The position numbers and the translations under genes were made by a program. Below are positions 3,390-33,197 of a stretch of DNA of 64,000 bases, in pieces; positions within the stretch are counted from its first letter, which is position 1, and every line of letters starts with the position of its first letter. Location: NCBI GenBank assembly GCA_037443565.1, contig JBBIOB010000010.1, forward strand, positions 1,329 through 65,328. Direction: 5' to 3'. The DNA comes from Armatimonadota bacterium. GTDB taxonomy: Bacteria; Sysuimicrobiota; Sysuimicrobiia; Sysuimicrobiales; Humicultoraceae. Under the pieces are notes generated by a model. The model was given only the letters and a program-made list of their open reading frames with translations, searched no databases and had not been told where the DNA came from.

Positions 3390-4280
3390 TCACATCGCGC
3401 GCAGGCGGCGGACGCGCTCCTCAACGGGCGGATGCGTGTTGAAGCGGTCGTTGAGCCATCCGCCCCACTCGTGCAGGGGGTTGATGATGTACAGGTGCGC
3501 GGTGGCCTTGTTCGCGACCTCCAGCGGCTCCCGGTCCGCGCCGATCTTCTCGAGCGCGCTGGCCAGACCCTCGGGATACCGGGTGAGCATCGCCCCCGAC
3601 GCGTCGGCCAGGAATTCTCGGTTGCGCGAGATCGCCAGGCGGAGCACCTGCGCGAAGAGCGGCGCCAACACCGCGAGGATGAGCCCGACCAGCGCGATGA
3701 TCCCCGCCGCGCCGCTCCCCCGCCGACCGCGTCCGCCGCCCCGGCGGTCCCAGAGTAGGCTGCGCCGGAAGATGTCGCTCATCATCACGACGAGGCCCAC
3801 CATGATCGTCGCGACCGTCGCCAAGCGGATGTCGTAGTTCCTGATGTGCGCCATCTCGTGGGCAATGACCCCTTCCAGCTCGAGCCGGTTGAGCTTGCCC
3901 AGCAGGCCTTTGGTCACCGCGATGGCAGCGTGCTCGGGGTCGCGTCCGGTCGCAAACGCGTTGGGCGCCGAGTCGTCGATCAGGTAGATGCGGGGCGTGG
4001 GAATCCCGGCGGCGATCGCCAGCCCCTCGACGGCGTTGTACAGGTAGGGGTACTGGTCGCGCGGTGCCTCCCGGGCGCGGCTGATCGCCAGGACGATCCG
4101 GTCGCTGTAGTAGTACGATCCCCACGCGCCCGCAAGCGCCAGCCCCGCCGCCAGGGCCACGCCGCCGTACCCGAAGTCGAAGGTTTCGCCGAGCGCATAG
4201 CCCAGGGCGACGACCACGACGGCGAACAGGAGGAACAGGAGCCAGGTGCCCCTGACGTTTCGTTCGATGGCCTCGTACAT
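3390..4280 (-). CDS. htpX: Zinc metalloprotease HtpX (M48 family)
   Basis: HEMAH zinc motif, N-terminal transmembrane helices, and overall HtpX-like architecture. Confidence 0.85.
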   Translation of the reverse strand: MYEAIERNVRGTWLLFLLFAVVVVALGYALGETFDFGYGGVALAAGLALAGAWGSYYYSDRIVLAISRAREAPRDQYPYLYNAVEGLAIAAGIPTPRIYLIDDSAPNAFATGRDPEHAAIAVTKGLLGKLNRLELEGVIAHEMAHIRNYDIRLATVATIMVGLVVMMSDIFRRSLLWDRRGGGRGRRGSGAAGIIALVGLILAVLAPLFAQVLRLAISRNREFLADASGAMLTRYPEGLASALEKIGADREPLEVANKATAHLYIINPLHEWGGWLNDRFNTHPPVEERVRRLRAM

Positions 4281-4298
4281 GCGGGCAGCGCGCCGAGG

Positions 4299-4850
4299 CT
4301 AGAACTTGACCGCGACCGGTCTCCGGGCCTCCTCTTCCATCTCGAAGTACTCTCGGGGCCCGAACCCAAGGCTCTGCGCGATGAGCACGGCCGGGAATGC
4401 CTGCCGGGTGTTGTTGTAGCGCAGGACGGTATCGTTGTAGAACTGCCGCGCGAACGCGATCTTGCTCTCGGTGCCGCTCAGCTCCTCCTGGAGCTGCATG
4501 AAGTTCTCGCTGGCCCGCAGCTGCGGGTAGTTCTCGGCGACGGCAAACAGGCTGCGCAGCGCCTGTGTCAGCATGTTCTCGGCCTGGCTGTGCTCGCCCA
4601 CCGTGCCCGCGGCGATCGCCCTTGCCCGGGCCTCGGTGACCCGCTCGAAGACCTCGCGCTCGTGTGTCGCGTAGCCCTTGACCGTCTCGACCAGGTTGGG
4701 AATCAGGTCGTACCGTCGGCGGAGCTGGACGTCGATCTGGGACCAGGCATTGTCGATCCGGTTGCGGAACACGACCAGCCCGTTGTACAGAAGGACGACG
4801 TAGAGCGCCACGAGCACCAGGACGCCGAGGACCAACAGCCAAGAAGACAC
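4299..4850 (-). CDS. lemA: LemA family membrane protein
   Basis: N-terminal TM helix followed by the LemA pattern ([45 protein letters not shown]). Forms a lemA-htpX pair, as commonly seen. Confidence 0.8.
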
Positions 4851-4986
4851 CGATCCACCTCCTCACCGGACGTTGCCCGACGAACCGGGTACTGCTTCTT
4901 CGCCGCAGGAACAATCCCCTAGCCCCGGTCTGTTATAATGGCCACAAGATTACGCTCTGCGCCGACCGTAGAAGGGGGATCCTGTC

Positions 4987-5502
4987 GTGCGCGTGATGAA
5001 GGTCCGCCGGGTCGCGCTCGACCAGCAGAACAACCCGGTCGTGCTGCTGGTCGACGAGGAAGAGACCATGGCCCTGCCGATCTGGATCGGCCAGGCCGAA
5101 GCGATGGCCATCGCGATGCGCCTGCAGGGGGTCCAGCCGCCGCGGCCGATGACCCACGACCTCCTCCAGACGGTCCTGGAGCAGCTCTCGGCCAAGGTCA
5201 CGCGCATCGTCGTAAGCGACGTGCGCGACCAGACGTACTTCGCCGAGATCCACCTGGCCCGCAACGGCTCGGCCCTGGTCATCGACTCCCGACCCAGCGA
5301 CGCGATCGCGCTCGCGTTGCGGGTCGACGCGCCGATCTTCGTCGAGGACAAGGTCGCCTCCCAGGCGATCACGCTGCGCAAAACCCGGAAGGGCGACGGG
5401 GAAGGTCTGACCGAGGAGCCCGGCGAGGAGCTCGACCCGCAGGAGTTCAGGAAGTTCCTCGAGCGCGTCAAGCCCAGCGACTTCGAAGGTCCCGTGCACT
5501 AA
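4987..5502 (+). CDS. Bifunctional nuclease (BFN/DUF151) domain protein
   Basis: BFN-domain pattern (…PVVLLVDEEETMALPIWIGQAEAMAIAMRLQG…RPSDAIALALR…). Start could be GTG at 4987 or ATG at 4993. Confidence 0.55.
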   Translation: MRVMKVRRVALDQQNNPVVLLVDEEETMALPIWIGQAEAMAIAMRLQGVQPPRPMTHDLLQTVLEQLSAKVTRIVVSDVRDQTYFAEIHLARNGSALVIDSRPSDAIALALRVDAPIFVEDKVASQAITLRKTRKGDGEGLTEEPGEELDPQEFRKFLERVKPSDFEGPVH

Positions 5503-5541
5503 CAGCGGGCCGGCGTCCGCCGGCCCGCCGGACGCGGTGTT

Positions 5542-6222
5542 CTATCGCTCGAAGTCCACGTACACGGCGCCGGCCATCTCGGCGCCGACGCGCTTCGGAC
5601 GGCCTTCAACGCGCACGTCGACGTGACGGGCGCCGGCCGACATCACCTCGAACTCCACGCCCGGCAACAGCCCCGCGGCCGTCAGGTCGCGGACGACCTT
5701 CTCATCCCGATCGCTCACCCGCACAATGAGCCCCCGCTGCCCCGGCCTGGCCGAGGAGAGGGCGTGCGCCGCCGGCGTCGCCATGGCGCCGTCGCGCGAC
5801 GGGATGGGATCGCCGTGGGGGTCGAGGTCGGGCTGCCCGAGCGCGCCCGCGATGCGTTCTTCGAGGTCCTCGGAGATGACGTGCTCCAGACGGTCCGCTT
5901 CGTCGTGCACGCGGTCGAGGCTCACCCCCAGGTGCCGGCTGAGGTAGAGCTCGAGCAGCCGGTGATGGCGGATGACCTCGAGGGCCACCTTCTCGCCGGC
6001 CTCGGTGAGCGCGACGCCGCGGTAGGGCTCGTGCCGCACGAGGCGCAGCCTGGCCAGGCGCTTCATCATGTTTGTCACCGACGCCGGAGAGACGCCCAGG
6101 CGCACGGCCAGGCCGTTCGTGGTGACGCGGGCCTCGCCCTGGGCGATCATGTAGATCGCCTTGAGGTAGTCTTCGATGGCCTGGCTGAGCGGCGCGGTCA
6201 TGGCGGCCCCCTCGTCTCTCAT
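5542..6222 (-). CDS. DtxR/IdeR/MntR-family metal-dependent transcriptional repressor with C-terminal FeoA/SH3-like domain
   Basis: N-terminal winged HTH (QAIEDYLKAIYMI…), a metal-binding/dimerisation domain, and a C-terminal FeoA-like domain. Likely start is MTAPLSQ near 6201. Confidence 0.8.
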   Translation of the reverse strand: MRDEGAAMTAPLSQAIEDYLKAIYMIAQGEARVTTNGLAVRLGVSPASVTNMMKRLARLRLVRHEPYRGVALTEAGEKVALEVIRHHRLLELYLSRHLGVSLDRVHDEADRLEHVISEDLEERIAGALGQPDLDPHGDPIPSRDGAMATPAAHALSSARPGQRGLIVRVSDRDEKVVRDLTAAGLLPGVEFEVMSAGARHVDVRVEGRPKRVGAEMAGAVYVDFER

Positions 6223-6252
6223 CCTGCCACAAACAGGCCGGTCACGTACATG

Positions 6253-8400
6253 CTACTCCGGTGGCGCGATGCGCAGCGGGCCGTTGATGTCGGAGGTCCG
6301 CAGGGTCATGAAGTGCGTGGGCTCGAGCATGAGCAGCCGGTGGACCAGGCGCGTGCGCAGCCCGATCCAGGCCGCGAACTCGGCGCCTCCATCCGGCGAC
6401 ATCCAGAGCACGACCCGGCAGGGCTCGTCGCCGCAGCGGCCCGCGCGTCCGCCGATGACCCCCCGGGCATCGCGCATGTAGTACAACGGCCCCTCGACGG
6501 GCACCGGTGACGAGAACTCATAGCGTCTCCACGGGCCGCTGCCGGTCTTCTGGTAGCGCACCGCGCCGAGTGCCACAACTTCGACCCCTGACGACGTACG
6601 AAATCGCTGGCGGTCGGGCGCCTCGGCCTCCAGCCAGGTCAGGTAGACGTTGCCGGCGCCGTCGGTCAACTGCTGCGTCTCGCGCCACGTGCGCACCGCC
6701 TGCCAGGCGGCGCGCGCCTGGTCGAGCAGCCGCACGGCCTCGGGATCCGGCGTGCAGAGCGGCGGCTCGCCCAGGCGCAGCGGAAACGCCGTGGAGGTGT
6801 CGCGTCGTCCGGCGCGCCGGACGACGACCTCGATCTCCCAGAATCCGGGTGCGCCAAGATCGCCGGTCTCGCCGGTGTACTCTCCCGCTTCCTGGTGGAC
6901 GAGGGTGACGGTCCGGCGGTCGAGGTCTTCGTCCAGCTTCAGCGCGCGCACCATGACCTGCACCGGCTCCTCGATCGGCGCGCCGTCGGCGCGTGTGAGG
7001 ACGGCCTCGAGGCGATTCCACCCTGGCAGCGCGGGCGCTATGGTGAGCCGGACGCCGACATCATCGGCGATGCCGGAGAGCAGCACGCGGGCATCCGGGG
7101 CCCGCGCCACCGCCGATCCGGCCGGCGGCGTGATCGTCAGCACAGCCGCGGCGAGCACAACGGCGGCGGCAATCCCCACTTCGCCCGTCGCCAGGGGGCC
7201 GAACGATCCGTGCCGGCGCCGGTTGAGGGCGCCGAGCACCGCAAGCAGGACGGCCACCAAGAGCTTGAATGCCAGGGTCCGACCGTAGGCCGTGTCGAGC
7301 GCGGACCGGATGTCCGGCACCAGGACCCACACGTTGATCACGCCGGTCACCGCGACGACCCCCAGGCTGACCGCGGCGACCATTGAGAATCTGGGCACCA
7401 GCGCCGCGAGCAGCCGGCGACGACCGGCAGGCGTCGCAGCCCGATGTACGAGGAGCAGGGCGGCAAGGCCGCCGATCCATGCCGCCGCGGCCGCGAGATG
7501 CCCGAGGTCGACGGCGGCAGCCCCGATGCCCACGCCTGCGGCATGCGACGCCCAGGTGAAGCTCGCCAGGAGTCCCACGCCGACGACCGCGGAGATCCAG
7601 GCCGATGCTTGAGTGTTTCCGGCCGCGAGGACTGCGAGCACCCATGCCAGCCCGACGCGGGCGAGCGCACCCCACCCGGCACGCGTCTCCAGGACGAACG
7701 CCAGAGTCCGGCCATCGGCCGCAACCGCGCCGACGGGCAGGTCGAACAACGACGCGGCCTGCAGCGCCACCTCGACGATGGTGCCGATGACGAGCGCAAG
7801 CGCGGCCAGCCGGACGGAGGGAACAAGGGGGCGCGCCGTCGCGCCGGGACCGTGACCTGCGCCGTCCTGCGGTTCGGCCGTGGCCTGCGAGAGCGCGTCG
7901 GCCTTCGGCAAGACCGCTGCCTTGAAGATCGCCGCACCTGCCAGGAACAGCGCGGCCAGCAGACCCATCCAGCGAAATGCCGCGCGGGCTGGATCCGCGG
8001 ACCCGGCCGCGGGCCGCGCCGCCTCGGCTGTCAGCGCCTGCCCGATGGCGAAAGCGAAGGACCCGCTCGTGATGTGCCCGTCGACGGCCGACAGCACGCG
8101 CCACCGCACGGTGTAGGCACCGCGCAACAGCGCGGCCGTGTCTACGCGGATCTGTTGCCGATCCCCAGAGACCGCCGACCGATCGGCGACCCGATGTCCG
8201 TCGGCGTCGAAGACGGCCGCGCCGCTGAAGACGGGATCCACGGGCTCGTTGAACCAGAGCACCACTTGTTCGGGGGCCGTCGGCAGGACGGCGTTGGCCG
8301 ATGGGCCCGATCGTACGAGGACGCCGTGGGCGCCGACCACGCCGGCCAACCCCGCCGTCAACCCGATGATGAGTCCGACCAATGAGAGACCGCGTCGCAT
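6253..8400 (-). CDS. Copper resistance CopC-CopD fusion protein (YcnJ-like), paralog 1
   Basis: N-terminal CopC cupredoxin-like domain (HGVLVRSGPSANAVL…YTVRWRVLSAVDGHITSGSFAFAIG), then a polytopic CopD-like membrane domain, then a C-terminal soluble domain. That C-terminal domain is conserved with paralog 2 (…CRVVLWMSPDGGAEFAAWIG…HRLLM). Confidence 0.75.
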   Translation of the reverse strand: MRRGLSLVGLIIGLTAGLAGVVGAHGVLVRSGPSANAVLPTAPEQVVLWFNEPVDPVFSGAAVFDADGHRVADRSAVSGDRQQIRVDTAALLRGAYTVRWRVLSAVDGHITSGSFAFAIGQALTAEAARPAAGSADPARAAFRWMGLLAALFLAGAAIFKAAVLPKADALSQATAEPQDGAGHGPGATARPLVPSVRLAALALVIGTIVEVALQAASLFDLPVGAVAADGRTLAFVLETRAGWGALARVGLAWVLAVLAAGNTQASAWISAVVGVGLLASFTWASHAAGVGIGAAAVDLGHLAAAAAWIGGLAALLLVHRAATPAGRRRLLAALVPRFSMVAAVSLGVVAVTGVINVWVLVPDIRSALDTAYGRTLAFKLLVAVLLAVLGALNRRRHGSFGPLATGEVGIAAAVVLAAAVLTITPPAGSAVARAPDARVLLSGIADDVGVRLTIAPALPGWNRLEAVLTRADGAPIEEPVQVMVRALKLDEDLDRRTVTLVHQEAGEYTGETGDLGAPGFWEIEVVVRRAGRRDTSTAFPLRLGEPPLCTPDPEAVRLLDQARAAWQAVRTWRETQQLTDGAGNVYLTWLEAEAPDRQRFRTSSGVEVVALGAVRYQKTGSGPWRRYEFSSPVPVEGPLYYMRDARGVIGGRAGRCGDEPCRVVLWMSPDGGAEFAAWIGLRTRLVHRLLMLEPTHFMTLRTSDINGPLRIAPPE

Positions 8401-8591
8401 ACGAACCCGCGCCAGATACCCACCGAAGCGATCGTAGCCTAAAACGGGCCGGCCTCACTCGGGTGACGACCGCAGGCGCACATCCGGATGGCCCCGCGCC
8501 TTAAAACCTTCTTAAACACGGGCGCGCCCGCGCCAAGCATCATGGTGATGCAGGATAGCTTCGCAGTTCATGCGAGTCAACACATCGAGAG

Positions 8592-9194
8592 GTGAGGAGC
8601 ATGGCATCCATCAAGCCGCGCCGCACGACCATCGAGGATCCGCCGCTCGCGCGGCTGCTGTTCGGAAGCACGTCCATCGCGTGGCTGTGGCTGATCGCCC
8701 GCAGCTGGCTGGGATACGTCTGGCTGACATCGGCACTGCGCAAGGTCGGCAACGCCGACTGGGTCCAGACCGGGCTCGCTGTCAGGGGGTTCTGGGAGCG
8801 CGCCGTGGCGATCCCGGAGCAGGGACGGCCGCCCATCACCTTCGACTGGTATCGCGGGTTCATCCAGTTCCTCCTGGACACCGGCAGCTACGCCTGGTTC
8901 GGCAAGCTCATCGTCTACGGCGAACTGCTCGTCGGCGTGGCGCTGATCCTGGGCGCGTTCACCGGCATCGCCGCGTTCTTCGCCGCCTTCATGAATTGGA
9001 ACTTCCTGATGGCCGGCACCGTGAGCGTCAGCCCGGTGATGCTCCCGCTGACGATCCTCGTGATCCTGGCCTGGAAGGTGGCCGGATACTACGGGCTGGA
9101 CTCCTACCTGCTCCCGCTGCTGGGGACGCCCTGGCGGAGGGGCCGGGTCTTCGAAAGAGTGCCCGAGGGCCGGCCAGCGCTCTCGCCGGAGTGA
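8592..9194 (+). CDS. DoxX family membrane protein
   Basis: DoxX-like pattern of small hydrophobic segments (…FGKLIVYGELLVGVALILGAFTGIAAF…). Confidence 0.55.
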   Translation: MRSMASIKPRRTTIEDPPLARLLFGSTSIAWLWLIARSWLGYVWLTSALRKVGNADWVQTGLAVRGFWERAVAIPEQGRPPITFDWYRGFIQFLLDTGSYAWFGKLIVYGELLVGVALILGAFTGIAAFFAAFMNWNFLMAGTVSVSPVMLPLTILVILAWKVAGYYGLDSYLLPLLGTPWRRGRVFERVPEGRPALSPE

Positions 9195-9215
9195 CCTCCG
9201 GGGGGCGCGGGATGA

Positions 9216-9420
9216 GTGTCGATTGTGATCGGTCTGGCGGCGTTCCTCGTCGTCAACCCGCTCCTCGCGCTGCGCGCGCCCACGCCGGCAGTCCCCGAGA
9301 CCGGCGACGTCCGCCGTGTCGTGGTGACTATGGCCGGATTCGAGCCTGGCGCGATCCGCGTGCCTGCCGGCGCACCGTTCGCCGTGCACCTCGTCAACCC
9401 CGACAGTCCCTACCCCGGCG
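9216..9420 (+). pseudogene. N-terminal fragment of a cupredoxin (signal peptide plus first beta-strands); remainder apparently displaced to 29331..29513
   Basis: RVVVTMAGFEPGAIRVPAGAPFAVHLVNPDSP aligns with the N-terminal half of the intact cupredoxin at 32796 (SVEVTMRDFAFEPRTIQVRAGTVNFVLTNQGG). After ~9411 the reading frame no longer looks like a cupredoxin. Confidence 0.4.
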
Positions 9421-9616
9421 GGGCCGGAACCAAACAGGGCCGGCTCCGCCGGGGTAGGAATGCGGGGAGCTGCCCGGGCGGCGCCAGGTCGTCAGGCAGG
9501 GGACCCGACCCTGAACGCCCCAGGCGGAGGGCGCCCGGCCAGAGCACGGCCCCCAGGCCCACGACGGCCGCGAGGATCGCACAGGCCAGAAGTGCCGCTC
9601 GGGTACGCCCCATCAC
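9410..9616 (-). CDS. Small membrane-anchored hypothetical protein, start overlapping the stop of the MoeZ-like gene
   Basis: ATGTGATG stop/start overlap with the upstream gene, and an N-terminal TM helix (AALLACAILAAVVGLGAVLW). No recognisable family. Confidence 0.25.
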   Translation of the reverse strand: MMGRTRAALLACAILAAVVGLGAVLWPGALRLGRSGSGPLPDDLAPPGQLPAFLPRRSRPCLVPAPPG

Positions 9617-10791
9617 ATGGCTCCCCCTCCACGGCCCTGCGGCTCGACCGGGAGCTGCGCGTTCGTCCAGGCGGTGATCCCTCCCGCCAGGTTGAAGGCT
9701 CTCGGGTGGCCGTGCGCCTGCAGCCAGACGGCGATCTCGGCGCTACGCTGACCGACCGCACAGTACACCACCACAGGGCGACCCGGCGGGATCTCGCTGT
9801 ACCGTTCGGGCACCTGCCCCTTGGGGATGAGGACCGCCCCGGGGATGCGCACCACTTCCCACTCCCAGGGCTCGCGGACGTCCAGCAGGAAGGCACCGTC
9901 CTCCTGCACCAGTCTGGCAGCTTCCTCGGGTGACGCCTCGACGACGGGAGGTGCCGCCGCCTCCGCGGCCGCATGGCGGCCGGGCACCCCGCAGAACTGG
10001 TCGTAGTCGATCAGATCGCGGATGGTCGGCCGGTCCCCGCAGACCGGGCAGTCGGGATTCCGGTGCCAGCGCAGCGTGCGCACCTGCCCCTCCAGGGCGT
10101 CGAAGAGGAGCAGGCGGTTGACCAGCACGTCGGGCTGGCCCAGCAGCACCTTGATGGTCTCGATGGCCTGCAGCGTGCCCATGAAGCCGGCCAAGGCGCC
10201 GATGACCCCTGCCTCGGCGCAGCTCGGCACCGCGCCGGGCGGCGGCGGTGCCGGGAACAGGCACCGGTAGCAGCCGCGCCCCGGCAGGTAGACGGTGAAC
10301 TGGGCCTCCCATCGGAGCACGCTGGCGTCCACCAGCGGCCTGGCGAGGAGCACGCAGGCATCGTTGACCAGGTAGCGGGTGGGGAAGTTGTCGCTGCCGT
10401 TGACGACCATGTCAAAGCCCCTGATGATGTCGAGGGCATTGTCCCTGGTCAGGGTCGTCTGGAAGGGGGTCACGGTCACATCAGGGTTGACATCTTCGAG
10501 CGTGCGGCGGGCCGACTGTGTCTTCGGCCGGCCGAGATCGTGCGTGAAGTGGAGGATCTGCCGGTGGAGGTTGGTGAGGTCCACCCGGTCGCCGTCCACG
10601 ATGCCCAGGGTGCCGACCCCTGCTGCCGCCAGATAGAGGCACGCCGGACAGCCCAGTCCGCCCGCGCCGACAACGAGCACGCTGCTGTCCAGCAGGCGGC
10701 GCTGCCCGGCGACGCCGACCTCTTCCAGGATGACCTGGCGCGAGTAGCGCTGGAGCTGCTCGCTGGTAAGGAGGCGCGTGGTCACGCTCAT
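9613..10791 (-). CDS. moeZ: MoeB/ThiF-family adenylyltransferase fused to a C-terminal rhodanese domain (MoeZ-like sulfur-carrier adenylyltransferase/sulfurtransferase)
   Basis: E1-like nucleotide-binding motif (VLVVGAGGLGCPACLYLAAAGVG), zinc CxxC pairs (CYRC…CPVC) and a C-terminal rhodanese domain with active Cys (VVVYCAVGQRS). Likely start is MSVTT at 10791. Confidence 0.8.
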   Translation of the reverse strand: MSVTTRLLTSEQLQRYSRQVILEEVGVAGQRRLLDSSVLVVGAGGLGCPACLYLAAAGVGTLGIVDGDRVDLTNLHRQILHFTHDLGRPKTQSARRTLEDVNPDVTVTPFQTTLTRDNALDIIRGFDMVVNGSDNFPTRYLVNDACVLLARPLVDASVLRWEAQFTVYLPGRGCYRCLFPAPPPPGAVPSCAEAGVIGALAGFMGTLQAIETIKVLLGQPDVLVNRLLLFDALEGQVRTLRWHRNPDCPVCGDRPTIRDLIDYDQFCGVPGRHAAAEAAAPPVVEASPEEAARLVQEDGAFLLDVREPWEWEVVRIPGAVLIPKGQVPERYSEIPPGRPVVVYCAVGQRSAEIAVWLQAHGHPRAFNLAGGITAWTNAQLPVEPQGRGGGAM

Positions 10792-11045
10792 GGCCGGGCC
10801 TCCGCGCTCTGGAGGCCCTCGGGTGGGCCCTGTGTGCGCGTGATCCGGATCCGCCACTGGCCGGGCCCCTCCTCTTCGATGGCGCACCGATAGCCGAGCC
10901 GAGAGGTGTAGAAGGGGATCGACTCCAGCGCCGGCGGATGGTCGGTGAGCACCTCGAGGTGCTCACCCTGGGCCAGCGTTCGAAGGACCTCGACCGTCTT
11001 CATAATCGGATAGGGGCAGATCTCGCCCCGCACGTCCAGCTCCAT
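10788..11045 (-). CDS. TusA-family sulfurtransferase
   Basis: CPxP active-site motif (MELDVRGEICPYPIMKT). The 4-nt stop/start overlap with the MoeZ-like gene suggests translational coupling. Confidence 0.7.
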   Translation of the reverse strand: MELDVRGEICPYPIMKTVEVLRTLAQGEHLEVLTDHPPALESIPFYTSRLGYRCAIEEEGPGQWRIRITRTQGPPEGLQSAEARP

Positions 11046-11069
11046 TGGAATCCCTCCCATTCCATCTCG

Positions 11070-12293
11070 TCACGGGATGCGCCTGATGATCTGCACCCCC
11101 ACCCACGCGCCGGCAGCCAGGGACAACGCGAACACCCAGCCGTTGAGGGCCAGCGAGGGAACAGCCGAGAAGAACGCACCCAGCGTGCACCCCATGGCCA
11201 GGGTGGCGCCGTAGCCCATGAGGATCCCACCGCCCAGGGCCTGCAGGTAGCGCCGCCGCTCCTTGGGCCGGCGCAGCCGGAACTCTCCGGCCAGCAGTGC
11301 GCCGGCAAAGGATCCGGCCACCATGCCGACGTTGAGCGTCAGCGTGTGGGTAAGCCAGGGGCCACCGGTGGCGGCCAGCGCGCAGGCGGCCAGTTCCTCC
11401 GCGCCCTTCAGCGGGCCCGGGCCCCATCCGGCCAGGGTGAGGAGCCCCATGGACCATCGGGAGATCTCCCCGGTCACCCCCCACGGCATGTGGGCCGTGT
11501 AGAGAAACACATTGAGCACACCCAGGGCGATCCCGCCGGCTGCCGGCGACCATCCCCGCACGCAGACCGCGCGCAGCCCGGCATCCACCCGGTCCCGGAA
11601 GCTCCGGGCGAGGAGTGGCGCCGGCGGCTCCGGAGAGGCGAACCCCTGGCGCGCCTCCCACCAGGTGACCAGCAGGTACGCTGCAGCCAGCAGGGCCACA
11701 GTGCCCGCCACCGCGGCGCCATAGCCGCCGGCGCCGGGCAGCCACACCAGTGGGCCGCGCTCAATACTGGTGCGCCACCAGAAGTTCCATGTGTGCGCCC
11801 CCAGCCCCAGTCCGGCCATGATGCCCACCAGGGCTACCCCGGAGGCCACGTAGCCCTCCCCGATCCGGTACATCGACCCTGAGACGCAGCCTCCGGCGAC
11901 GACCATGCCGATGCCAAACATGAGGCCGCCTGTGACGAGGTGCACTCCCAGCGGAATGACGTGGGCCTCGGGCGCGATCGCGCCCAGGCCAGGATCTGGG
12001 ACCATGCGGTTCATCAGCACTACGAAACCGGCGGTCGCCACCGCCAGGCCGCCCAGGATGCCTCGCATGACCCGTCCGGACCCAAACAGGAACAGATCGC
12101 GAAAGGCCGAGGCGAAGCAGAACCGGCTGCGCTGCAGCACGAACCCGAATGCCAGGCCGAAGAGCCAGAACAGGCCCGAGCGCGGGTCCGCCCGGGAGGT
12201 GAGCGTGGCGATCGCGGCAGCAGCCACGAGCGCACCGGTCCCCAGGAGCAGCAGGCGCGGCAAATCGGTCCTGGTCGATACGGTGCCCCTCAT
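11070..12293 (-). CDS. YeeE/YedE family thiosulfate/sulfur-compound transporter (two-repeat form)
   Basis: Two YeeE/YedE repeats, each with the conserved cysteine in a …RFCFASAF…-type motif. Polytopic membrane protein. Confidence 0.8.
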   Translation of the reverse strand: MRGTVSTRTDLPRLLLLGTGALVAAAAIATLTSRADPRSGLFWLFGLAFGFVLQRSRFCFASAFRDLFLFGSGRVMRGILGGLAVATAGFVVLMNRMVPDPGLGAIAPEAHVIPLGVHLVTGGLMFGIGMVVAGGCVSGSMYRIGEGYVASGVALVGIMAGLGLGAHTWNFWWRTSIERGPLVWLPGAGGYGAAVAGTVALLAAAYLLVTWWEARQGFASPEPPAPLLARSFRDRVDAGLRAVCVRGWSPAAGGIALGVLNVFLYTAHMPWGVTGEISRWSMGLLTLAGWGPGPLKGAEELAACALAATGGPWLTHTLTLNVGMVAGSFAGALLAGEFRLRRPKERRRYLQALGGGILMGYGATLAMGCTLGAFFSAVPSLALNGWVFALSLAAGAWVGVQIIRRIP

Positions 12294-12336
12294 CGCGTCA
12301 CCTCACAGTCCGTCTCCGAAGGGGCCACTCCAAGGG

Positions 12337-13257
12337 TCACCTCCGGACCGGCAGATCGGGGCGGTTCCCCCACTCCTCCCAGCTCCCGTCGTAGTTCCGG
12401 ACCTGCGGGTGGCCCAGCAGGTATCTCAGCACGAACCACGTGTGGGCGGAGCGCACGCCTGTCTGGCAGTAGGTAATGATCTCCCTGTCCTTCGGCACGC
12501 CTGCCCGGGCGTACAGCGCTCGTAGCTCCCTGACGGCCTTGAACGTCCCGTCCGGGTTGGTCGCCAGCGGCCAGTCCACGTTCACGGCTCCGGGGATGTG
12601 GCCGCCCCTCGCGGAACGCACGTCCAACCCAGCGTACTCCCTGGGGCTGCGGGCGTCGAGGAGGAATGCCTTGCCCAGCCTGGCCCGGATGTAGTCGGCC
12701 GTAGCGTTGATGCCGTCGTCGCGCTGCCCTGCCACATAGGACGACGGCTGAACCGCCGGCACGTCGGTGACGAGCGAACGGCCGTCTGCGGCCCACCTCG
12801 CGCTGCCGCCGTCCAGAATCGCCACCCGCCCGTGCCGGTAGAGCTTGAAGACCCAAAACGCCCGCGCGGCGTAGAGGCTCCTGGCGTCGTCGTACAGGAT
12901 GACGGCGTCGGTGTTGCGTATCCCCAGCCGGCGCATGAGGGCCTGGAACTGCTCCCCGGTGGGCGCCATGCCCTTCATTGGATGCGTGGGATCTACCAGG
13001 TCGGTCATGACGGAGACGTAGGTGGCCCCGGGCAGGTGGCCCCGCTCGTAGACCTCCCGGGTGGTGCTCACGTCGATGAGGCGCAGATCCGGCCTCGCGA
13101 GGTTGGCAGCCAGCCAGGCTGGATCGACCAGCACCTGAGCCCCGGCGAGGCCGCCCGCGGGCTGGGCCATCGACGGAGGAACGGCTAGTCCGATGAGCAG
13201 GCCCCACAGTATGGCATTCCACAGGATCATCCGGCGCATTGTCCTCACCCCCCACAT
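12337..13257 (-). CDS. Secreted tandem-domain rhodanese (thiosulfate/3-mercaptopyruvate sulfurtransferase, SseA-like)
   Basis: Signal peptide followed by two rhodanese domains, the second with the active-site loop (ITYCQTGVRS). Start is either 13257 or 13239. Confidence 0.8.
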   Translation of the reverse strand: MWGVRTMRRMILWNAILWGLLIGLAVPPSMAQPAGGLAGAQVLVDPAWLAANLARPDLRLIDVSTTREVYERGHLPGATYVSVMTDLVDPTHPMKGMAPTGEQFQALMRRLGIRNTDAVILYDDARSLYAARAFWVFKLYRHGRVAILDGGSARWAADGRSLVTDVPAVQPSSYVAGQRDDGINATADYIRARLGKAFLLDARSPREYAGLDVRSARGGHIPGAVNVDWPLATNPDGTFKAVRELRALYARAGVPKDREIITYCQTGVRSAHTWFVLRYLLGHPQVRNYDGSWEEWGNRPDLPVRR

Positions 13258-15899: not shown

Positions 15900-16020
15900 C
15901 CACCCGCTGTTCCGTGACGGTGTCCGCAGTCTCCTGCAGGCGCGGGGCGTGGAGGTCGTCGGAGAAGCGGGCGACGGCCAGGAGGCCTTCGAGGCGGCGT
16001 TGCGCATGAACAGAACACCC
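15877..16020 (+). pseudogene. Truncated response-regulator receiver domain (first ~48 aa only), overlapping the kinase stop
   Basis: [45 protein letters not shown] is a typical NarL-family REC N-terminus. After ~16010 the frame becomes non-REC sequence and no LuxR HTH follows. Confidence 0.4.
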
Positions 16021-16179
16021 ATGAGTGCGGCCACCGCCGGCCGGGGTACCATGCGCGGGGCCCCGCCCGTGACACGCAGGACTGCCCATACGGTGGCCAC
16101 GGCGAGGGGCAGCCCCATCAGGACCTCCGCGCCGCCGATGCGAAAACCCGTGAGGCCGTAGTTCAGGTGCGGGACGTGC

Positions 16180-16766
16180 GTGGCGTACAGCGCGGCGGCG
16201 AACGCCGCCGCGCGCAGCAGGGTCGACGGCTGGGCTACATGCTCTACAACTTTCGCCTTCTACCTCTTCGGGGCGGCGTTCAACCAGCTCTTCCTGGTCT
16301 ACGCCGCCCTCGTACCGCTCTCGGTGCTGGCGCTCATCTTCGGGCTGGTCGGGAGCGACGTCACGGCCCTTAGCCGGACCTTCCGGGGCCGGCTCCCGGC
16401 GAAGTGGATCAGCGGGTTCATGCTGCTGGTGGCCGCCGGTCTGAGCGCCACCTATGCGGCGCAGTCTCTGGCCTTCATCACCACGGGCAACTGCCACCCG
16501 TGGTGGTGAACACCGGGCACCCTACCAGCGTGGTCTTCGCCCTGGACCTCTCCCTGGTGGTCCCGTTCTTCGTCCTGGGAGCGATCTGGCTGTGGCGGCG
16601 CCGGCCGTGGGGCGCGGCCTACATGCTGGCCCTCACCGCCGCCACTGTGTCTGGGGCGAACGCCGGCGGCTCTACCGCCCTGGTTCCTCTTTGGGCCTCA
16701 ATTGGCGCGGTCAGCCTGATCGTAGCCGTGCTCCTGCTCCGCGATATGCGCACGGCGGAGACGTAG
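16180..16766 (+). pseudogene. Disrupted membrane protein of unknown family (frame switch near 16500)
   Basis: Two consecutive hydrophobic protein-like ORF pieces in different frames (…FAFYLFGAAFNQLFLVYAALVPLSVLALIFGLVG… and …VVFALDLSLVVPFFVLGAIWLWRRRPWGAAYMLALTAA…). Either a frameshift or a sequencing error. Confidence 0.3.
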
Positions 16767-24233: not shown

Positions 24234-24386
24234 CGGGCGGGCACGCCCTCCACATCGTTAACGGTCTCTTAACCAGCGCCGCCGTGCGCCCTGCCAGGAT
24301 AGGAAGGGAGAGAAGCACGGCACGATAGGGCAGAGACGCGCGTGAGACGCGCACGCTGATGCGGCGCGCGATCCCAGGCGACCCAC

Positions 24387-24761
24387 ATGAGCTCGAGTCT
24401 CCCGCGGCCGACACGCACGCACGTGGCCATTGCGCTGGTGGCTCTGACGACCGCCTTCGCGGTCACGCTGCAGCTCCGGACCGAGCGGGAGACCCGCAGG
24501 GTGCTCGGCGTCCCATCGCCGCGGCTGGCCGAGCTGGCCTACACGATGCAGCGTGAAGAGCAGCACCGCACAGCGCTCGAGGGCGAGGTCACCTCGCTGC
24601 GCCAGCACCTGGCCACGCTGGCCGACGCGGCGGCCACAGACCAGCAGGGGCTGCGCCGGATGAACGATGATCTCAGTCCGCCGGAACAACACACCCCTCG
24701 ACCCCTGGCCGTATCTGAACCGCTGACCCATGACCGGGTGACCTCTCAGGTCCTCCCTTAA
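24387..24761 (+). CDS. Hypothetical membrane-anchored coiled-coil protein
   Basis: N-terminal TM helix (VAIALVALTTAFAVTLQL) followed by a heptad-like charged region. No recognisable family. Confidence 0.3.
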   Translation: MSSSLPRPTRTHVAIALVALTTAFAVTLQLRTERETRRVLGVPSPRLAELAYTMQREEQHRTALEGEVTSLRQHLATLADAAATDQQGLRRMNDDLSPPEQHTPRPLAVSEPLTHDRVTSQVLP

Positions 24762-25118
24762 GCAGTCCTTAACCATCCCGTGGCGCCGCGCGTCTACGAT
24801 GAGGCCAACGCCCGGGGGGGCTGACGCAGGTGCGGACAGGGTTCGACATCGTTGACGCGGAGCGCGGTGCACAGCGCGGTAGAACGACAGCGGCCGCAGG
24901 GCGCGCGGCGTCCGTGCGGGCTGCGGTGCGCCCCGATCACACCTCCTGGATGTTGACGTCCCTGCTGCTCTGGCTGTGCTCACTGCCCTTGATCGGTCTG
25001 CTGGTGTGGCCGCATCTGGGCGCGCGGGTCGCGTTGATCGTGGCCGCAGGCCTGCTCGTCGCCTCGGTCACCGTCTGTTACGCGATCTGCGCCTGGCAGG
25101 TCGCCACGCCCGGAAGAG

Positions 25119-28013
25119 GTGCAGACGATGAGTAGGTCCTACTCCAAACCGATCGCCTTCGGACTACTCGGTTCCATCTCGCTGATTGGGCTCTATCTCG
25201 GCATCGTCCGCGTCGGATCGGCCTCATGGCCCCACACGGTTGATCTCCTGGTGACCGACTGGTACCTGGTCGCCGCCGTGGCCACGGGCTTCGGCATCCA
25301 GATGGGCCTCTTCACGCATCTGCGGCAGGTCCTCCGGCAGAACGGGGGCGTCCGCTCGGCGACGGCGATGGCGGCCGGCGGCACGGCGACATCCACCACC
25401 TCGATGGTCGCCTGCTGCCTGCACCACCTGGCCGAGGTGCTGCCGATCATCGGCCTCTCGGGCGCGGCGGTCTTCTTCACCACGTACAAGGTGCCGGTCA
25501 TCCTGTTCGGACTGGCGACCAACGGGCTCGGGATCGGGATCATGCTGCGGGCGATCCGGCGGCACACCCGGGCGGTCCGCACATCCCCACGCCCATCCCC
25601 CCGTGTATCCCCGCAAGGAGGAACCCCTATGCTGCCAGCAATCGGCTACGAGGTCGGCCGCGAGACGCTGCAGCTGCACATCAGCGGCATGAGCTGCGCG
25701 TCGTGCGTCTCCAGCATCGAGGGCGCGGTCGGCAATCTCCCCGGCGTCGCCCGGGTGACCGTGACGCTCACCGCGGGCACCGCGTCGGTCGAGTACTATC
25801 CGGGGACGGTGACCCCGGCACAGATCAAGAAGACGATCCGCGACCTGGGCTATGAAGCGGCCGAGCGGCTCGACGGCGCCGCGGCGCTGGACCGCGAGCG
25901 CGAGGCGCGCCAACGCGAGATCACCCGGCAGGGGCGGTGGATGCTCGTGGCGTGGCCGCTGGGCTTCCTGGTCATGCTGGGGACCTTTCAGGCGATGTGG
26001 ATCCTCCCCCGCTTCGTGCCCGAGGTCCTGGGCAACCGCCTGGTGCTCTTCGCATTGACCACCCCGATCGTCTTCGGCCCGGGCCTGCAGTTCTTCGTCA
26101 ACTCCTACCGCGGGCTGCGGCTGGGCGTGGCCGACATGAACCTGCTCTACGCCACCGGCATTGGCGCCGCGTACCTCATCGCGATCATCAACACCTTCTG
26201 GCCCGACGCGGGGTTCGGCGGACCGCAGGCCACGTTCTACGAGGCCGCGGCGCTGCTGACCGCGTTCATCATCCTGGGCCGCTACCTCGAGGCGCTGACC
26301 CGGGGCCGGGCGTCTGAGGCGATCCGCAAGCTCATGAGCCTCCAGCCCAAGATCGCCCGGGTCGTCAGGGACGAGGCGGAGATCGAGATCCCCGCCGACG
26401 AGGTCGAGGTCGACGATCTCGTCCTCGTGCGGCCGGGCGAGCGGATCCCGGTCGACGGCGTGGTGCTCGACGGCTACTCGGCGGTGGACCAGTCGATGCT
26501 CACCGGTGAGTCCATGCCCGTCGAGAAGCGTGCCGGCGACGAGGTCATCGGCGGTACGATGAACAAGACCGGCGCGTTCCGCTTCCGCGCCACGCGGGTC
26601 GGCCGGGAGACCGCCCTGGCCCAGATCATCAAGCTCGTCGAGGACGCGCAGGCCAGCAAGGCACCGATCCAGAAGCTCGCTGACCTGGTCGCGGGGAAGT
26701 TCATCTTCTGGGTCCACGTCCTGGCGCTGGCGGTCTTTCTGTTCTGGTTCTTCCTGGGGTACGACGTGTTCTTCAGCCCGCAGACCCGGCTGATGCTCAC
26801 GCCCTACACGCTCGCAGGCGTGGGAGTCTTCGGGTTCGCGCTCCTGATCTCGGTGGCAGTCCTGGTGATCTCGTGCCCCTGCGCCGTCGGCATGGCCACG
26901 CCGAGCGCGATGATGGCCGGCACGGGCAAGGCCGCCGAGCACGGCATCCTGTTCAAGGGCGCAGATGCCGTCGAGGCCGCGAGCCGGCTGACCGCGATCA
27001 TCTTCGACAAGACCGGCACGCTGACGCGCGGCGAGCCCGCAGTAACCGACATCGTGCCGGCGCCCGGTGGCGATGTCGCCGGGCTGCTCGGCCTGGCCGC
27101 CTCGGCCGAGGTGAACTCGGAGCACCCGCTGGGCGAGGCGATCGTGCGGGGGGCGCGCGAGCGCGGTCTCGCGGTGGGCCCGCCCGAGTCATTCGAGGCT
27201 GTCCCGGGGCGCGGGGTCATCGCGCGGTCGGCCGGCCGGGATGTGCTGCTGGGCAACCGCAAGCTCATGGCCGACCGCGCCGTGGCCATCGACGCGATCA
27301 CCGGTGAGGCGGAGCGCCTCGAAGGCGAGGGCAAGACGGTCATGTTCCTGGCGGTCGACGGCCGGCCGGCCGGGCTGATCGCGGTGGCCGACACGCTGAA
27401 GCCGAACTCGATCCAGGCCGTCGGGCTGCTGCGGCGGTTCGGTCTCGAGGTCGCGATGCTCACCGGCGACAACCGGCGCACCGCCGAGGCGATCGCCCGC
27501 CAGCTCGGCATCGACCAGGTCCTGGCCGAGGTGCTCCCGCAGGACAAGGCCTCGGAAGTCCAGCGGCTCCAGGGCGCCGGGCACCGCGTCGCCATGGTCG
27601 GCGACGGCATCAACGACGCCCCGGCCCTGGCCCAGGCCGACGTGGGCATGGCCATCGGCTCGGGGACGGACATCGCCAAGGAGAGCGGCCACGTGGTCCT
27701 GGTGAAGGACGACCTCCGCGACGTCGTCACGACGATCGAGGTGGCGCGCGCGACGATGCGCAAAGTCAAACAGAACCTGTTCTGGGCGTTCGTCTACAAC
27801 GCGGTGACGATCCCGGTCGCGGCGGGGCTGCTCTACACCCGGACGTACCTGGTCGTGAGCCCGGAGATGGCCGCCTTCCTCATGGCTATCAGCTCGCTGA
27901 CGGTGACGCTGAACACCACACTGTTGAAGCGGTTCGTGCCGACGCTTCGGCTCCGGCCCGAGCCGAAGCCTGCGGGCGGTGCGCTGGCACCGGTTGCCGG
28001 GGGGCAGTCATGA
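25119..28013 (+). CDS. copA: Copper-translocating P1B-type ATPase with an unusual in-frame N-terminal ~170-aa four-TM domain; canonical CopA body starts at 25629 with its own RBS
   Basis: HMA ([13 protein letters not shown]), TGES, CPC ([12 protein letters not shown]), [17 protein letters not shown], and TM7/8 residues YN…M…SS typical of Cu(I) ATPases. An AGGAGG RBS precedes an internal ATG at 25629 (MLPAIGYEV…). The upstream 25119..25628 segment encodes TM helices with a CC…HH motif ([14 protein letters not shown]) and is in frame with no stop. Confidence 0.8.
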
Positions 28014-28292: not shown

Positions 28293-28328
28293 TCATGCCC
28301 GGCGCCGGCGGAAAGAAGGAGGGAACGA

Positions 28329-30647: not shown

Positions 30648-31325
30648 ATGAAGATCCTCATCGTCGAAGACGAGGAGACGATGGTCACCTCCCTGCAGGC
30701 CTTGCTGACGCGCGAAGGCTACCAGGTCGCTGTCGCCAGGGACGGCCCAGAAGGCGTCGAGGCCGCGCGGACCACGCTGCCCGACCTGGTCCTGCTCGAC
30801 CTGGCGCTGCCCGGGCTGGACGGCCTGGAGGTGTGCCGGCGGATCCGACTGTTCAGCACCGCGCCCGTCATCATGCTCACGGCGCGCGCCAGCGAAGGCG
30901 ACAAGGTCACCGGCCTTGAGGTCGGCGCGGACGACTACGTCACCAAGCCTTTCTCACCACGCGAGCTGATCGCGCGCATCCGCGCCCAGCTTCGACGGGT
31001 CCAGACGTACGCGCAGGCCGGCCAGCACGATCTCTTGGAAACCGACGAGATCACCATGGACGTGCCGGCCCGTAAGGTGCTCGTGCGGGGACGCGAAGCG
31101 TCATTGTCCCCCAAGGAGTTCGACCTGCTGCGCGTGCTGATGGTGAACGCCGGCCGCGTGCTGGGCCGCGACTACCTGCTCGACCGGGTCTGGGGCGAGA
31201 GTTACGCTGGCGACGTCCGCACCCTGGACGTACACATCCGCTGGCTGCGCGAGAAGATCGAGCGCGATCCCGGCGCACCCCGGCACATCCTGACCGTGCA
31301 CGGCGTCGGCTACCGGTTCGAGTAG
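30648..31325 (+). CDS. OmpR/PhoB-family response regulator
   Basis: REC domain (MKILIVEDEETM…LLDLALPGLDG…) and a winged-helix trans_reg_C domain (…LTVHGVGYRFE). Confidence 0.85.
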   Translation: MKILIVEDEETMVTSLQALLTREGYQVAVARDGPEGVEAARTTLPDLVLLDLALPGLDGLEVCRRIRLFSTAPVIMLTARASEGDKVTGLEVGADDYVTKPFSPRELIARIRAQLRRVQTYAQAGQHDLLETDEITMDVPARKVLVRGREASLSPKEFDLLRVLMVNAGRVLGRDYLLDRVWGESYAGDVRTLDVHIRWLREKIERDPGAPRHILTVHGVGYRFE

Positions 31326-31327
31326 CG

Positions 31328-32725
31328 ATGTTCCGGCACATCCGGTGGCGGCTGCTGGCGACCTATCTGGTGGTCATCCTGCTCGCGCTCTCGTTCCTCG
31401 GCGTGCACCTGGCGCTCGACTCAGAAGCCCGCTACCTGGCCCAGGTCGAATCGGGCCTGCTGGCGCAGGCGCGGCTCATCGCGGTGCACGTGAGTCCGGC
31501 GGTGGCCGCCGGCGACCAGGCGCGCACCCAGGCGGAGCTGCGGGGTACGCAGTTCCCCGGCAACCCCTCGGTCCTCGTGCTCGATCCGGGGGAACAGGTC
31601 CTGGCGCTCCACGCGGCCGACCCGTCGTTTCGCGCGGGGGCCCACCTCGGCCGGGAAGGCATTCCCGCGGCCCTGCGAGGCATCGAGTCGGCGGGCTCGA
31701 CGCGCGTGGATGGCGTCCCGGTCGTCTACGGAGCCGTTCCCATCCAGGCGGACGGCGAGGTCGTCGGAGCCGTGTACGTGGCCCTGCCCGTCCACGAGCT
31801 CGCGGCGCAGATCCGCCACACGCGGGTGTTCGTGGGCTGGACGATCCTCCTGACCATGCTCTGGGCGGCCCTGGTGAGCTTCCTGCTCGCCCAGCGCATC
31901 GCCGGGCCGATCCAGGAGATGCGCACGGCCACGGCGCGCATGGCCGCAGGCGAGCTAGACCAGCGGGTGCGTGTGCGCACGAACGATGAGCTTGGCGATC
32001 TGGCCCGATCGCTCAACTACATGGCCGCCGAACTCGAGCGGCTGGACGCCATGCGCAGGGAGTTTGTCGCCGATGCGTCGCACGAACTGCGCACCCCCGT
32101 AGCGAATCTCGCGGTGGCGGTCGAGGCGCTGCGGGCCGGCCTGCCGGCGAGAGCGGCTCAGGCGGCGCCGCTCGTGGACGCCATCGAACGCGAGGTGGCC
32201 CGGCTGCGTGCGCTGGTCGAGACGCTGCTCGACCTGTCGGCGATCGAGTCGGGCCGCGTCCAGCTCCACATGGTGCCGACAGACCTCTCCGACCTGACCG
32301 GCCGCGTCATCGAGTCGTTTCGCGCCCGTGCGACGCAGCGTGGTGTCGAGGTCGCGCATGGCGTCGCAGTGCGGCCGGTGTCCGCGCTCGCAGACCCTGA
32401 TCGAATGACCCAGGTGGTCAGCAATCTTGTGGACAACGCGCTGAAGTTTACGCCATCCGGAGGTCGGATCACCCTGACCGTGGAAGAGCGGCGCGGACGT
32501 GCGCTCATCCGCGTCGACGACACCGGCCCCGGGATTCCCCCCAGCGACCTTCCCCACCTCTTCGACCGCTTCTTCAAGGCCGACCGCTCGCGCACCGGCC
32601 GGGGTGGCGCGGGGCTCGGGCTCGCGATCGCGAAACGCCTGATGGTGATGCAGGGTGGCGATCTGACGGCTGAGAACCGACCCGACGGGGGTGCCCGATT
32701 CACCGCAACGCTTCCCGCGTCTTAA
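31328..32725 (+). CDS. Sensor histidine kinase (TM-HAMP-HisKA-HATPase), partner of the OmpR-type regulator
   Basis: HAMP, H-box (VADASHELRTP), and N, G1 and G2 boxes (…DDTGPGIP…GGAGLGLAIAKRLM…). Confidence 0.85.
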   Translation: MFRHIRWRLLATYLVVILLALSFLGVHLALDSEARYLAQVESGLLAQARLIAVHVSPAVAAGDQARTQAELRGTQFPGNPSVLVLDPGEQVLALHAADPSFRAGAHLGREGIPAALRGIESAGSTRVDGVPVVYGAVPIQADGEVVGAVYVALPVHELAAQIRHTRVFVGWTILLTMLWAALVSFLLAQRIAGPIQEMRTATARMAAGELDQRVRVRTNDELGDLARSLNYMAAELERLDAMRREFVADASHELRTPVANLAVAVEALRAGLPARAAQAAPLVDAIEREVARLRALVETLLDLSAIESGRVQLHMVPTDLSDLTGRVIESFRARATQRGVEVAHGVAVRPVSALADPDRMTQVVSNLVDNALKFTPSGGRITLTVEERRGRALIRVDDTGPGIPPSDLPHLFDRFFKADRSRTGRGGAGLGLAIAKRLMVMQGGDLTAENRPDGGARFTATLPAS

Positions 32726-32795
32726 CACTCTCTTAACCCCACACAGATCCGAACATGTATAGTCGGGTGGACATTCTCCAATCCGGGGGGGATAC

Positions 32796-33197
32796 ATGCG
32801 AGCGAGAACCTGGGTCGCAAGTGTTGTAGTCCTGATCGCCGCCGCAGCCGCTGGATGCGCACAGCGCGCACCCCAGCCGGCGGCCGCCCCGCCGCCGGCC
32901 GCCACGGAAGGCGCGCAGTCGGTCGAGGTCACCATGCGCGACTTCGCCTTCGAGCCCAGGACCATCCAGGTCAGGGCCGGGACGGTGAACTTCGTGCTGA
33001 CCAACCAGGGCGGTGTGGAGCACGACTTCGCCATTCCCGCCCTTGAGGCACACGGCGAACACGAGCAGCACGTCGTCAGGCCTGGGCAGAGCCTCACGGT
33101 CACGCTGGACCTCCGGCCAGGAACCTACGAGGCCATCTGCACCATCCCCGGTCACAAGGAAGCTGGGATGGTTGCCACCGTGGAGGTCAGTCCGTAG
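32796..33197 (+). CDS. Cupredoxin (blue-copper, plastocyanin/azurin-like) lipoprotein
   Basis: Lipobox (AAAAGC), type-1 copper ligands His…Cys-x2-His-x4-Met (EHDF…CTIPGHKEAGM). Confidence 0.75.
   Translation: MRARTWVASVVVLIAAAAAGCAQRAPQPAAAPPPAATEGAQSVEVTMRDFAFEPRTIQVRAGTVNFVLTNQGGVEHDFAIPALEAHGEHEQHVVRPGQSLTVTLDLRPGTYEAICTIPGHKEAGMVATVEVSP

Follow-up and report, generated by a model that had tools for sequence, protein, structure and literature searches.

The locus examined here raises the question of why an AT-rich direct repeat should recur in one fixed spacing in DNA of 70.0% GC, and what might read it. The window, as we call the whole 64-kb stretch of DNA that was analysed, carries the repeat at 8501 (TTAAAACCTTCTTAAACAC), 24258 (TTAACGGTCTCTTAACCAG), 24758 (TTAAGCAGTCCTTAACCAT) and 32722 (TTAACACTCTCTTAACCCC), hereafter boxes 1 to 4 (Table 1). 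All four sites were found where the first-pass annotation had placed them, with identical 11-bp phasing and with a second unit that reads (t/c)CTTAA(a/c)C in every case. Searched for as TTAA-N7-TTAA, the pattern had four matches in the window, where dinucleotide-preserving shuffles led us to expect 0.01; none of the shuffles reached four matches and their maximum was one, which bears out the earlier view that a chance origin is improbable at such a GC content. Eight of the 11 TTAA tetramers present in the window lie inside the four box pairs, and neither a one-mismatch search of the window for TTAA-N7-TTAA nor a search with the relaxed pattern TAA-N8-TAA added a further site. Based on these counts and on the empty relaxed searches, the repeat is real, rare and non-random. 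Box 3 is the nearest to the family consensus among the four and box 1 the most degenerate.

Table 1. Coordinates of boxes, putative -10 hexamers, genes and arrays in the window and in related loci. Distances of the -10 hexamers are counted from the start of the proximal TTAA.
Feature	Locus	Position	Strand	Remarks
CopC-CopD fusion	Window	6253-8400	-	Island member
Box 1	Window	8500..8519	+	cTTAAa-N5-cTTAAaCAC; divergent region between copCD (-) and DoxX-like gene (+)
Putative -10 of box 1	Window	8538..8543	+	CATCAT; 26 nt; weak, without the first T
Predicted target 1, DoxX-like membrane protein	Window	8602..9194	+	Pfam DoxX 22.5 bits, just below cutoff
Weak cupredoxin-like ORF	Window	9216-9677		After the DoxX-like gene
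P-type ATPase with N-terminal cupredoxin domain	Window	17204-19519	-	P1B-type; cupredoxin domain fused ahead of HMA domain
Box 2	Window	24257..24276	+	gTTAAc-N5-cTTAAcCAG; 24 nt past the stop of the DUF420 gene
Putative -10 of box 2	Window	24295..24300	+	CAGGAT; 26 nt
Predicted target 2, orf124	Window	24387..24761	+	Stop inside box 3
Box 3	Window	24757..24776	+	cTTAAg-N5-cTTAAcCAT
Putative -10 of box 3	Window	24795..24800	+	TACGAT; 26 nt
Predicted target 3, orf101 then Cu-ATPase	Window	24830..28013	+	orf101 24830-25135; Cu-ATPase 25119-28013, HMA-domain, P1B-type copper ATPase
OmpR/PhoB-family response regulator	Window	30648..31325	+	PF00072 receiver and PF00486 winged-helix Trans_reg_C
Cognate histidine kinase	Window	31328..32725	+	sCache_3_2, HAMP, HisKA, HATPase_c; stop inside box 4
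Box 4	Window	32721..32740	+	cTTAAc-N5-cTTAAcCCC; at the kinase stop
Putative -10 of box 4	Window	32758..32763	+	TATAGT; 25 nt
Predicted target 4, small cupredoxin	Window	32796..33197	+	Best NCBIfam match CopI, below cutoff
P-type ATPase without HMA metal-binding domain	Window	33230-35227		Island member
Four-unit arrays	L086	2137/3239/3906
Four-unit arrays	L087	1246/2665/3761
Four-unit arrays	L088	3283/3950
Four-unit arrays	L091	1395/2483/4859
Four-unit arrays	L092	1553/2922
Four-unit arrays	L093	1585/7666/14928
Four-unit arrays	L093	1524/14859	-
Further array-preceded genes	L093	111-1427	-
Further array-preceded genes	L093	7777-9413
Further array-preceded genes	L093	14034-14654	-
Further array-preceded genes	L093	15099-15941
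CsoR gene	L086	9367-9687
CsoR gene	L088	9580-9867
CsoR gene	L089	6933-7256
CsoR gene	L090	9149-9472
CsoR gene	L092	8924-9247
Second regulator	L096	753-1442		Also in L098, L113, L114 and at the start of L087
Second regulator	L105	757-1458
Second regulator	L115	3726-4415
TTAA repeat at RWLREK-helix locus	L008	12729		Regulators of the four RWLREK-helix loci 49-54% identical
TTAA repeat at RWLREK-helix locus	L022	13615
TTAA repeat at RWLREK-helix locus	L026	9807
TTAA repeat at RWLREK-helix locus	L033	1537-1562

The boxes stand in a copper-handling island at window positions 6-35 kb, which in addition to the genes of Table 1 encodes DsbD-like, DUF420 and DOMON proteins and whose three P-type ATPases comprise two with HMA domains and one without. 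As had been claimed, each box precedes plus-strand genes of this metal region, namely those for the DoxX-like protein (with a ribosome-binding site and an ATG at 8602), orf124 (without a match in Pfam or NCBIfam), orf101 with the Cu-ATPase, and the CopI-like cupredoxin. The description of the sites as intergenic held for boxes 1 and 2 and needs a small correction for boxes 3 and 4, which abut or overlap gene ends: the first TTAA of box 3 includes the TAA stop of the upstream orf124 (24759-24761), and that of box 4 the TAA stop of the upstream histidine kinase (32723-32725). Stops supplied by the boxes point to internal promoters packed directly against gene ends. TAA stops are rare in this 70% GC genome, and box-supplied ones also occur in the related locus L086, at 3251-3253 and 3907-3909. 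Since all genes from orf101 through the regulator and kinase are on the plus strand, autoregulation of the regulator and kinase by read-through from a box 3 promoter would be possible.

Two further gene groups were noted in this part of the window. The region 13680-16200 encodes a dCache-HAMP-GAF-HisKA_3 kinase followed by a receiver-domain fragment only (15700-16161), which may represent a frameshift or pseudogene; at the corresponding place in the orthologous loci L086 and L089, the NarL/GerE-type regulator is intact. On the minus strand at 9613-13257, adjoining the DoxX-like gene, lies a sulfur-relay-like cluster of a ThiF-rhodanese fusion, a Sulf_transp membrane protein and a double-rhodanese protein, and a ThiF-rhodanese gene is found near the island in L088 as well.

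The DNA downstream of the boxes was analysed in 30 distinct arrays from 13 orthologous loci, aligned on the promoter-proximal unit; many of them come from related genomes and few sampling projects, so that these counts are of non-independent events. Information peaked at cTTAACCA and again at T27/A28/T32, with less than 0.5 bit at each of positions 9-26. In 27 of the 30 arrays, a TAnnnT hexamer began 25-27 nt past the initial T of the proximal TTAA; antisense readings gave none. The window layout box-N22-TAnnnT thus recurs in these arrays. The box itself is conserved in orthologous loci and the DNA between box and -10 is not. Unit spacing was exactly 11 bp at all four window sites and in 30 of 30 arrays, with up to four units in phase, and a 5' C (cTTAA) was scored in every unit of the window sites and arrays. 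Because the TTAA core is a palindrome, unit orientation was judged from the bases that flank it and from the phasing of multiple units. In the window, the putative -10 hexamers lie 30-87 nt upstream of start codons. Those of boxes 1 and 2 (CATCAT and CAGGAT) are weak, which counts against the explanation favoured below; relatives have TAGGAT at the -10 position of box 2. A fifth candidate site, on the minus strand upstream of the cupredoxin-fused ATPase gene (19566-19581, CTTAAC-N5-CTTGGC), consists of one good half-site followed by a degenerate one; it has two mismatches, lacks TAnnnT at the expected offset and was left uncounted.

With the putative hexamer set at -12 to -7 of an inferred start, a two-unit box would span about -50 to -34 and the longer arrays would reach to about -72, which would bring the proximal unit into contact with the -35 region. 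A generic sigma-70 promoter was rejected on two counts: a generic scan of 24000-33300 predicted none of canonical form (-35 at 16-18 nt), and TTAACC is separated from the -10 by 20 nt. The predicted anatomy is that of a promoter which depends on an activator and has a tandem protein-binding box where the -35 would be, with start sites inferred from the hexamers. An unusual promoter element had been one of two proposals for the repeat, and the fixed distance to a -10-like hexamer, read only in the orientation of the downstream gene, supports it in silico.

Conservation was assessed in 13 loci with orthologous regulators of 64-83% identity, the closest named relatives of the regulator being from Armatimonadota or Armatimonadetes MAGs (64-83% identity). 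TTAA-N7-TTAA was present in 12 of the 13 loci, the exception being L002, a fragment of 2.8 kb. In L001 (3197) and L005 (3952) the box lies at the kinase stop before the cupredoxin gene, as window box 4 does, and in L003 and L004 it is located upstream of an operon of a small ORF and a Cu-ATPase; boxes were also found in front of modules for NfeD/DUF881 and for YHS proteins. Predicted targets, with window and orthologs taken together, include DoxX-like, cupredoxin, Cu-ATPase, NfeD/DUF881 and YHS proteins. In L001 (Armatimonadetes bacterium RBG_16_67_12), a CODH/ACS cluster (Prismane, CdhC, CdhD, RACo; 4097-11788) directly follows the regulator-kinase-cupredoxin module.

The closer clade has the two-unit box of the window. 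Its sister clade, L086-L093, with regulators 64-69% identical to that of the window, has four units per promoter in exact 11-bp phase, arranged as cTTAAg-N5-cTTAAc-N6-nTAAn-N6-TTAACCAc, and TAnnnT again follows the last unit at an offset of 26 nt. L086-L088 belong to the MAG assemblies GCA_900175145.1, GCA_031459065.1 and GCA_031459495.1. On the soil contig L093, arrays also precede genes for an RND-type beta-barrel protein, PEMT/PrsW, an LDcluster4 protein and Rieske/Nramp proteins; two arrays are in a divergent back-to-back arrangement, and the two minus-strand arrays precede minus-strand genes. In this context, the regulon may be wider than copper export.

A motif-anchored scan of metagenomes was carried out with the four-unit array as query (21 specified bases, no protein reference), for which less than one match was estimated by chance. 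It returned 25 loci, 21 of them in DNA of 66-69% GC from the same gene neighbourhood, although many of the contigs stem from few related sampling projects and are non-independent. Recognisable parts of the copper cluster were present in 20 of these 21; L108 has a diverged regulator-kinase pair only. The remaining four of the 25 loci, on lower-GC contigs, are presumably chance matches. The conserved order of the cluster is orf97-NfeD-DUF881 (module 1), orf148/194-YHS-CBM (module 2) and orf84-zf-orf98-CuATPase-orf66-orf96-orf204-CytB-CsoR-regulator-kinase (module 3), and the arrays stand in front of these modules. Among the metagenome matches, the motif is accordingly tied to intergenic junctions of the copper island, and the co-occurrence with copper genes in relatives that had been suggested as a check was found, the scan landing almost only in the copper gene cluster.

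The gene at 30648-31325 encodes the only OmpR-type regulator in the window, and a regulator of this type is always encoded in the island. Among family models, the window protein scored best against MtrA, YycF and PhoB, and the structure that matched it best was RegX3. The recognition helix of the window regulator is GDVRTLDVHIRWLREK, and the helix RTLDVHIRWLREK is invariant in 11 orthologs from the two-unit and four-unit clades. As a negative control, we used 47 high-GC loci with paralogous OmpR-family regulators of at most 57% identity, among the matches listed. An RWLREK-type helix was found at four of these 47 loci, and TTAA-N7-TTAA occurred near the regulator in all four; the other 43 paralog loci among the matches listed had no TTAA-N7-TTAA in 764 kb (Fisher p = 5.6e-6), a co-variation that is suggestive rather than decisive, since the helix class was defined after seeing the data and comprises four positive loci. 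The four loci are labelled Vulcanimicrobiota, Binatia, Dormibacterota and one unclassified MAG. In L033 the order is kinase, box, pstB-like ABC ATPase, PhoU and regulator, and in L022 the box lies ahead of an ABC ATPase and an OprD-like porin; judged by these genes, the context at both loci is phosphate-regulon-like and not copper.

Other regulators were seen around the island in the four-unit loci. Many of these loci have a second OmpR-type two-component system, with a regulator about 50% identical and the helix DRIIDVHVKALRRK, placed at the island's other end, ahead of a cupredoxin-DUF302 pair. The idea that this second regulator reads half of the four-unit array was unsupported, its recognition helix being different. 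A CsoR (PF02583) gene is located directly upstream of the regulator gene in the four-unit clade, and two database proteins of about 336 aa, P0118 and P0119, were called as CsoR-regulator fusions.

What was observed in silico is the motif with its statistics, a geometry and orientation that are fixed, conservation among relatives and co-variation with the recognition helix; the box is very probably a promoter-proximal, protein-binding operator of the copper island. Two to four half-sites in the same orientation at 11-bp phase are a hallmark of head-to-tail binding by OmpR/PhoB-type winged-helix proteins. The other earlier proposal, a binding site for a dimeric regulator, therefore gains a candidate in the OmpR/PhoB-family regulator whose gene adjoins box 4 and whose helix appears to co-vary with the box, and it is likely that this regulator binds the box and activates the copper-island promoters. 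In the mechanism that we propose, the kinase (31328-32725) would phosphorylate the regulator (30648-31325), a dimer of which would occupy both cTTAAc half-sites in head-to-tail arrangement; these are 11 bp apart and share one face of the helix. As a TAnnnT -10 is present with no usable -35, the bound regulator would recruit RNA polymerase, as PhoB, PmrA and GlnR do. Four units would be switched on in this way: the DoxX-like gene; orf124; orf101 with the Cu-ATPase, possibly with read-through to the regulator and kinase; and the cupredoxin. The signal may be copper, or copper-linked envelope or redox stress; copper is inferred from gene context, and the closest relatives by helix type stand in phosphate-type contexts.

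The same regulator on the same box could instead act as a repressor, seated on or next to the -35 and blocking RNA polymerase until the signal arrives. We consider this unlikely, though it deserves some weight: the proximal TTAACC matches four of the six bases of TTGACA and overlaps the -35 region, and OmpR/PhoB-family regulators can repress, PhoP being described as activator or repressor (PMC11825685). Set against this are the spacer of 20 nt from TTAACC to the -10, where 16-18 is usual, and the absence of a detected canonical promoter, while promoters of this kind would probably be very weak without an activator; activator arrays, those of GlnR for example, typically extend upstream in the way that the four phased units of the relatives do. 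Co-location is also compatible with another conserved island protein as the binder, and the box might be an operator for a CsoR-type repressor, a small zf-dskA_traR protein or an uncharacterised small ORF. In L086, L088, L089, L090 and L092 the gene just ahead of the regulator does encode CsoR, and the arrays have conserved, unannotated small ORFs beside them. No match to CsoR (PF02583) or zf-dskA turned up in the tested ORFs of the window or in the called genes of L001 and L003-L005, all of them loci with boxes, and CsoR as the binder was rejected on this ground. Units in one orientation at 11-bp phase moreover fit head-to-tail winged-helix binding and not a palindromic operator, and the box follows RWLREK-helix regulators into non-copper loci without the rival proteins, all of which makes a reader other than the OmpR-type regulator quite improbable.

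A further reading takes the element not as a response-regulator site but as the -35 region for an alternative sigma factor, for example a copper-responsive one of the ECF type: TTAACCA is conserved and stands at a constant distance from a hexamer that is conserved too, and its AAC resembles ECF -35 cores. ECF promoters have roughly 16-17 nt between AAC and the -10, however, and the distance here is longer, about 21-23 nt; the downstream hexamer is a housekeeping-type TAnnnT, no sigma-factor gene was among the genes called in the ortholog loci, and the one to three extra upstream units in exact 11-bp phase would be left unexplained, which leaves this reading very little room. That the repeat has no function at the DNA level, and is a compositional accident, a scar of a mobile element or an RNA or translation feature providing stops in three frames, is scarcely credible. 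Its TAA triplets do lie 11 nt apart in different frames, and two of them are real stop codons. Chance nevertheless predicts 0.01 sites, and the T before and the C after TAA are conserved, as is a hexamer at a distance of 26 nt that is seen in just one orientation; the element has been kept across regulators that have diverged to 64% identity. No Rfam family matched in 8000-34000 and no intrinsic terminators or terminator-like hairpins were found in 24000-33300, and an RNA element was rejected on the Rfam result and on a geometry that is DNA-like and orientation-specific.

If activation by the adjacent regulator is taken as the working model, the box provides an uncharacterised two-component system with a concrete regulon, in a lineage that has been little studied and is mostly uncultured, and marks co-controlled genes of the metal island, including several conserved proteins without family assignment. 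A broader evolutionary reading is put forward tentatively, as possible but open to more doubt than confidence: a PhoP/RegX3-like branch with a TTAA-reading RWLREK helix may have been re-wired from phosphate to copper-island control in Armatimonadota-like bacteria, with the operator growing from two to four units between sister clades. If this is true, the growth of the operator would imply a switch from dimer-type to GlnR-like tetramer-type activation, and the regulon of about ten conserved, unannotated small proteins (candidates include orf97, orf84, orf98, orf66, orf148/194 and orf204) would represent new copper-homeostasis factors. Two-unit and four-unit boxes offer a natural comparison of how OmpR/PhoB proteins engage RNA polymerase, and a PmrA-like box with a different putative recognition helix is a small, useful case for the specificity rules of winged-helix proteins.

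Among known systems, the closest likeness is to the PmrA/BasR box of Salmonella, Klebsiella and E. coli. This box is CTTAAG-N5-xTTAAT, or two xTTAAy hexamers 5 nt apart; it is bound head-to-tail and replaces the -35, and residues T187, N188, V192 and H195 read 'TAA' (PMC3973317, PMC10570014). The half-site and spacing are near-identical to those found here, cTTAA(g/c)-N5-cTTAAc, and the systems share a reader of the OmpR/PhoB family, as proposed here for the window, and a box in place of the -35 at promoters predicted to be activator-dependent. The window regulator is not an orthologue of PmrA, however, scoring 161.9 bits on the NCBIfam PmrA model, whose cutoff is 330. In an alignment with E. 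coli BasR, its residues R191, R198 and W199 take the places of PmrA N188, H195 and N196, and the lack of the PmrA residues that read 'TAA' counts against the favoured explanation. Counted from the inferred -10, the window box is some 13 bp farther upstream than that of PmrA, and its predicted targets are copper proteins, whereas those of PmrA are LPS-modification genes. Given these differences in regulator, residues, position and targets, the similarity of the box sequences is probably convergent. The PhoB box occupies -41 to -25, and the pmra-box is shifted from it by 4 bp in the downstream direction (PMC10570014). The window box is roughly 9-13 bp further upstream than these two, again counted from the inferred -10, and the geometry of polymerase contact may therefore differ from that of PhoB and PmrA.

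The actinobacterial GlnR, also of the OmpR/PhoB subfamily, binds as four protomers head-to-tail on four sites, six bases apart, around and upstream of the -35 (PMC10235972). The four sites match the four-unit 11-bp arrays of the sister clade; GlnR differs in having its own half-site sequence and in being an orphan regulator of nitrogen metabolism, and the window has two units per promoter. Pho boxes of the PhoB/PhoP type are likewise tandem direct repeats of about 11-bp period overlapping the -35. The half-site of B. subtilis PhoP is TT(A/T/C)ACA. In contrast to Pho systems, no phosphate-uptake or phosphatase genes stand behind the boxes in the window or in orthologous loci, and the window regulator scored 226.7 against the PhoB equivalog cutoff of 296.2. 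Literature searches on TTAACA repeats of B. subtilis PhoP and on copper two-component systems of Armatimonadota found nothing usable.

In gene content, the island resembles the CusRS/CopRS systems, with a two-component system that lies among copper resistance genes (P1B ATPases, CopC-CopD, cupredoxins) and would presumably induce them. The window proteins fall below the family cutoffs in both components, with 181.3 against 279.2 for the regulator (CusR/CopR, TIGR01387) and 190.1 against 292.55 for the kinase (CusS, TIGR01386), and the sensor domain of the window kinase is of the sCache_3_2 type. The mechanism proposed for this locus is one already known, here in a lineage that has not been studied in this respect and with a regulator outside the named copper families.
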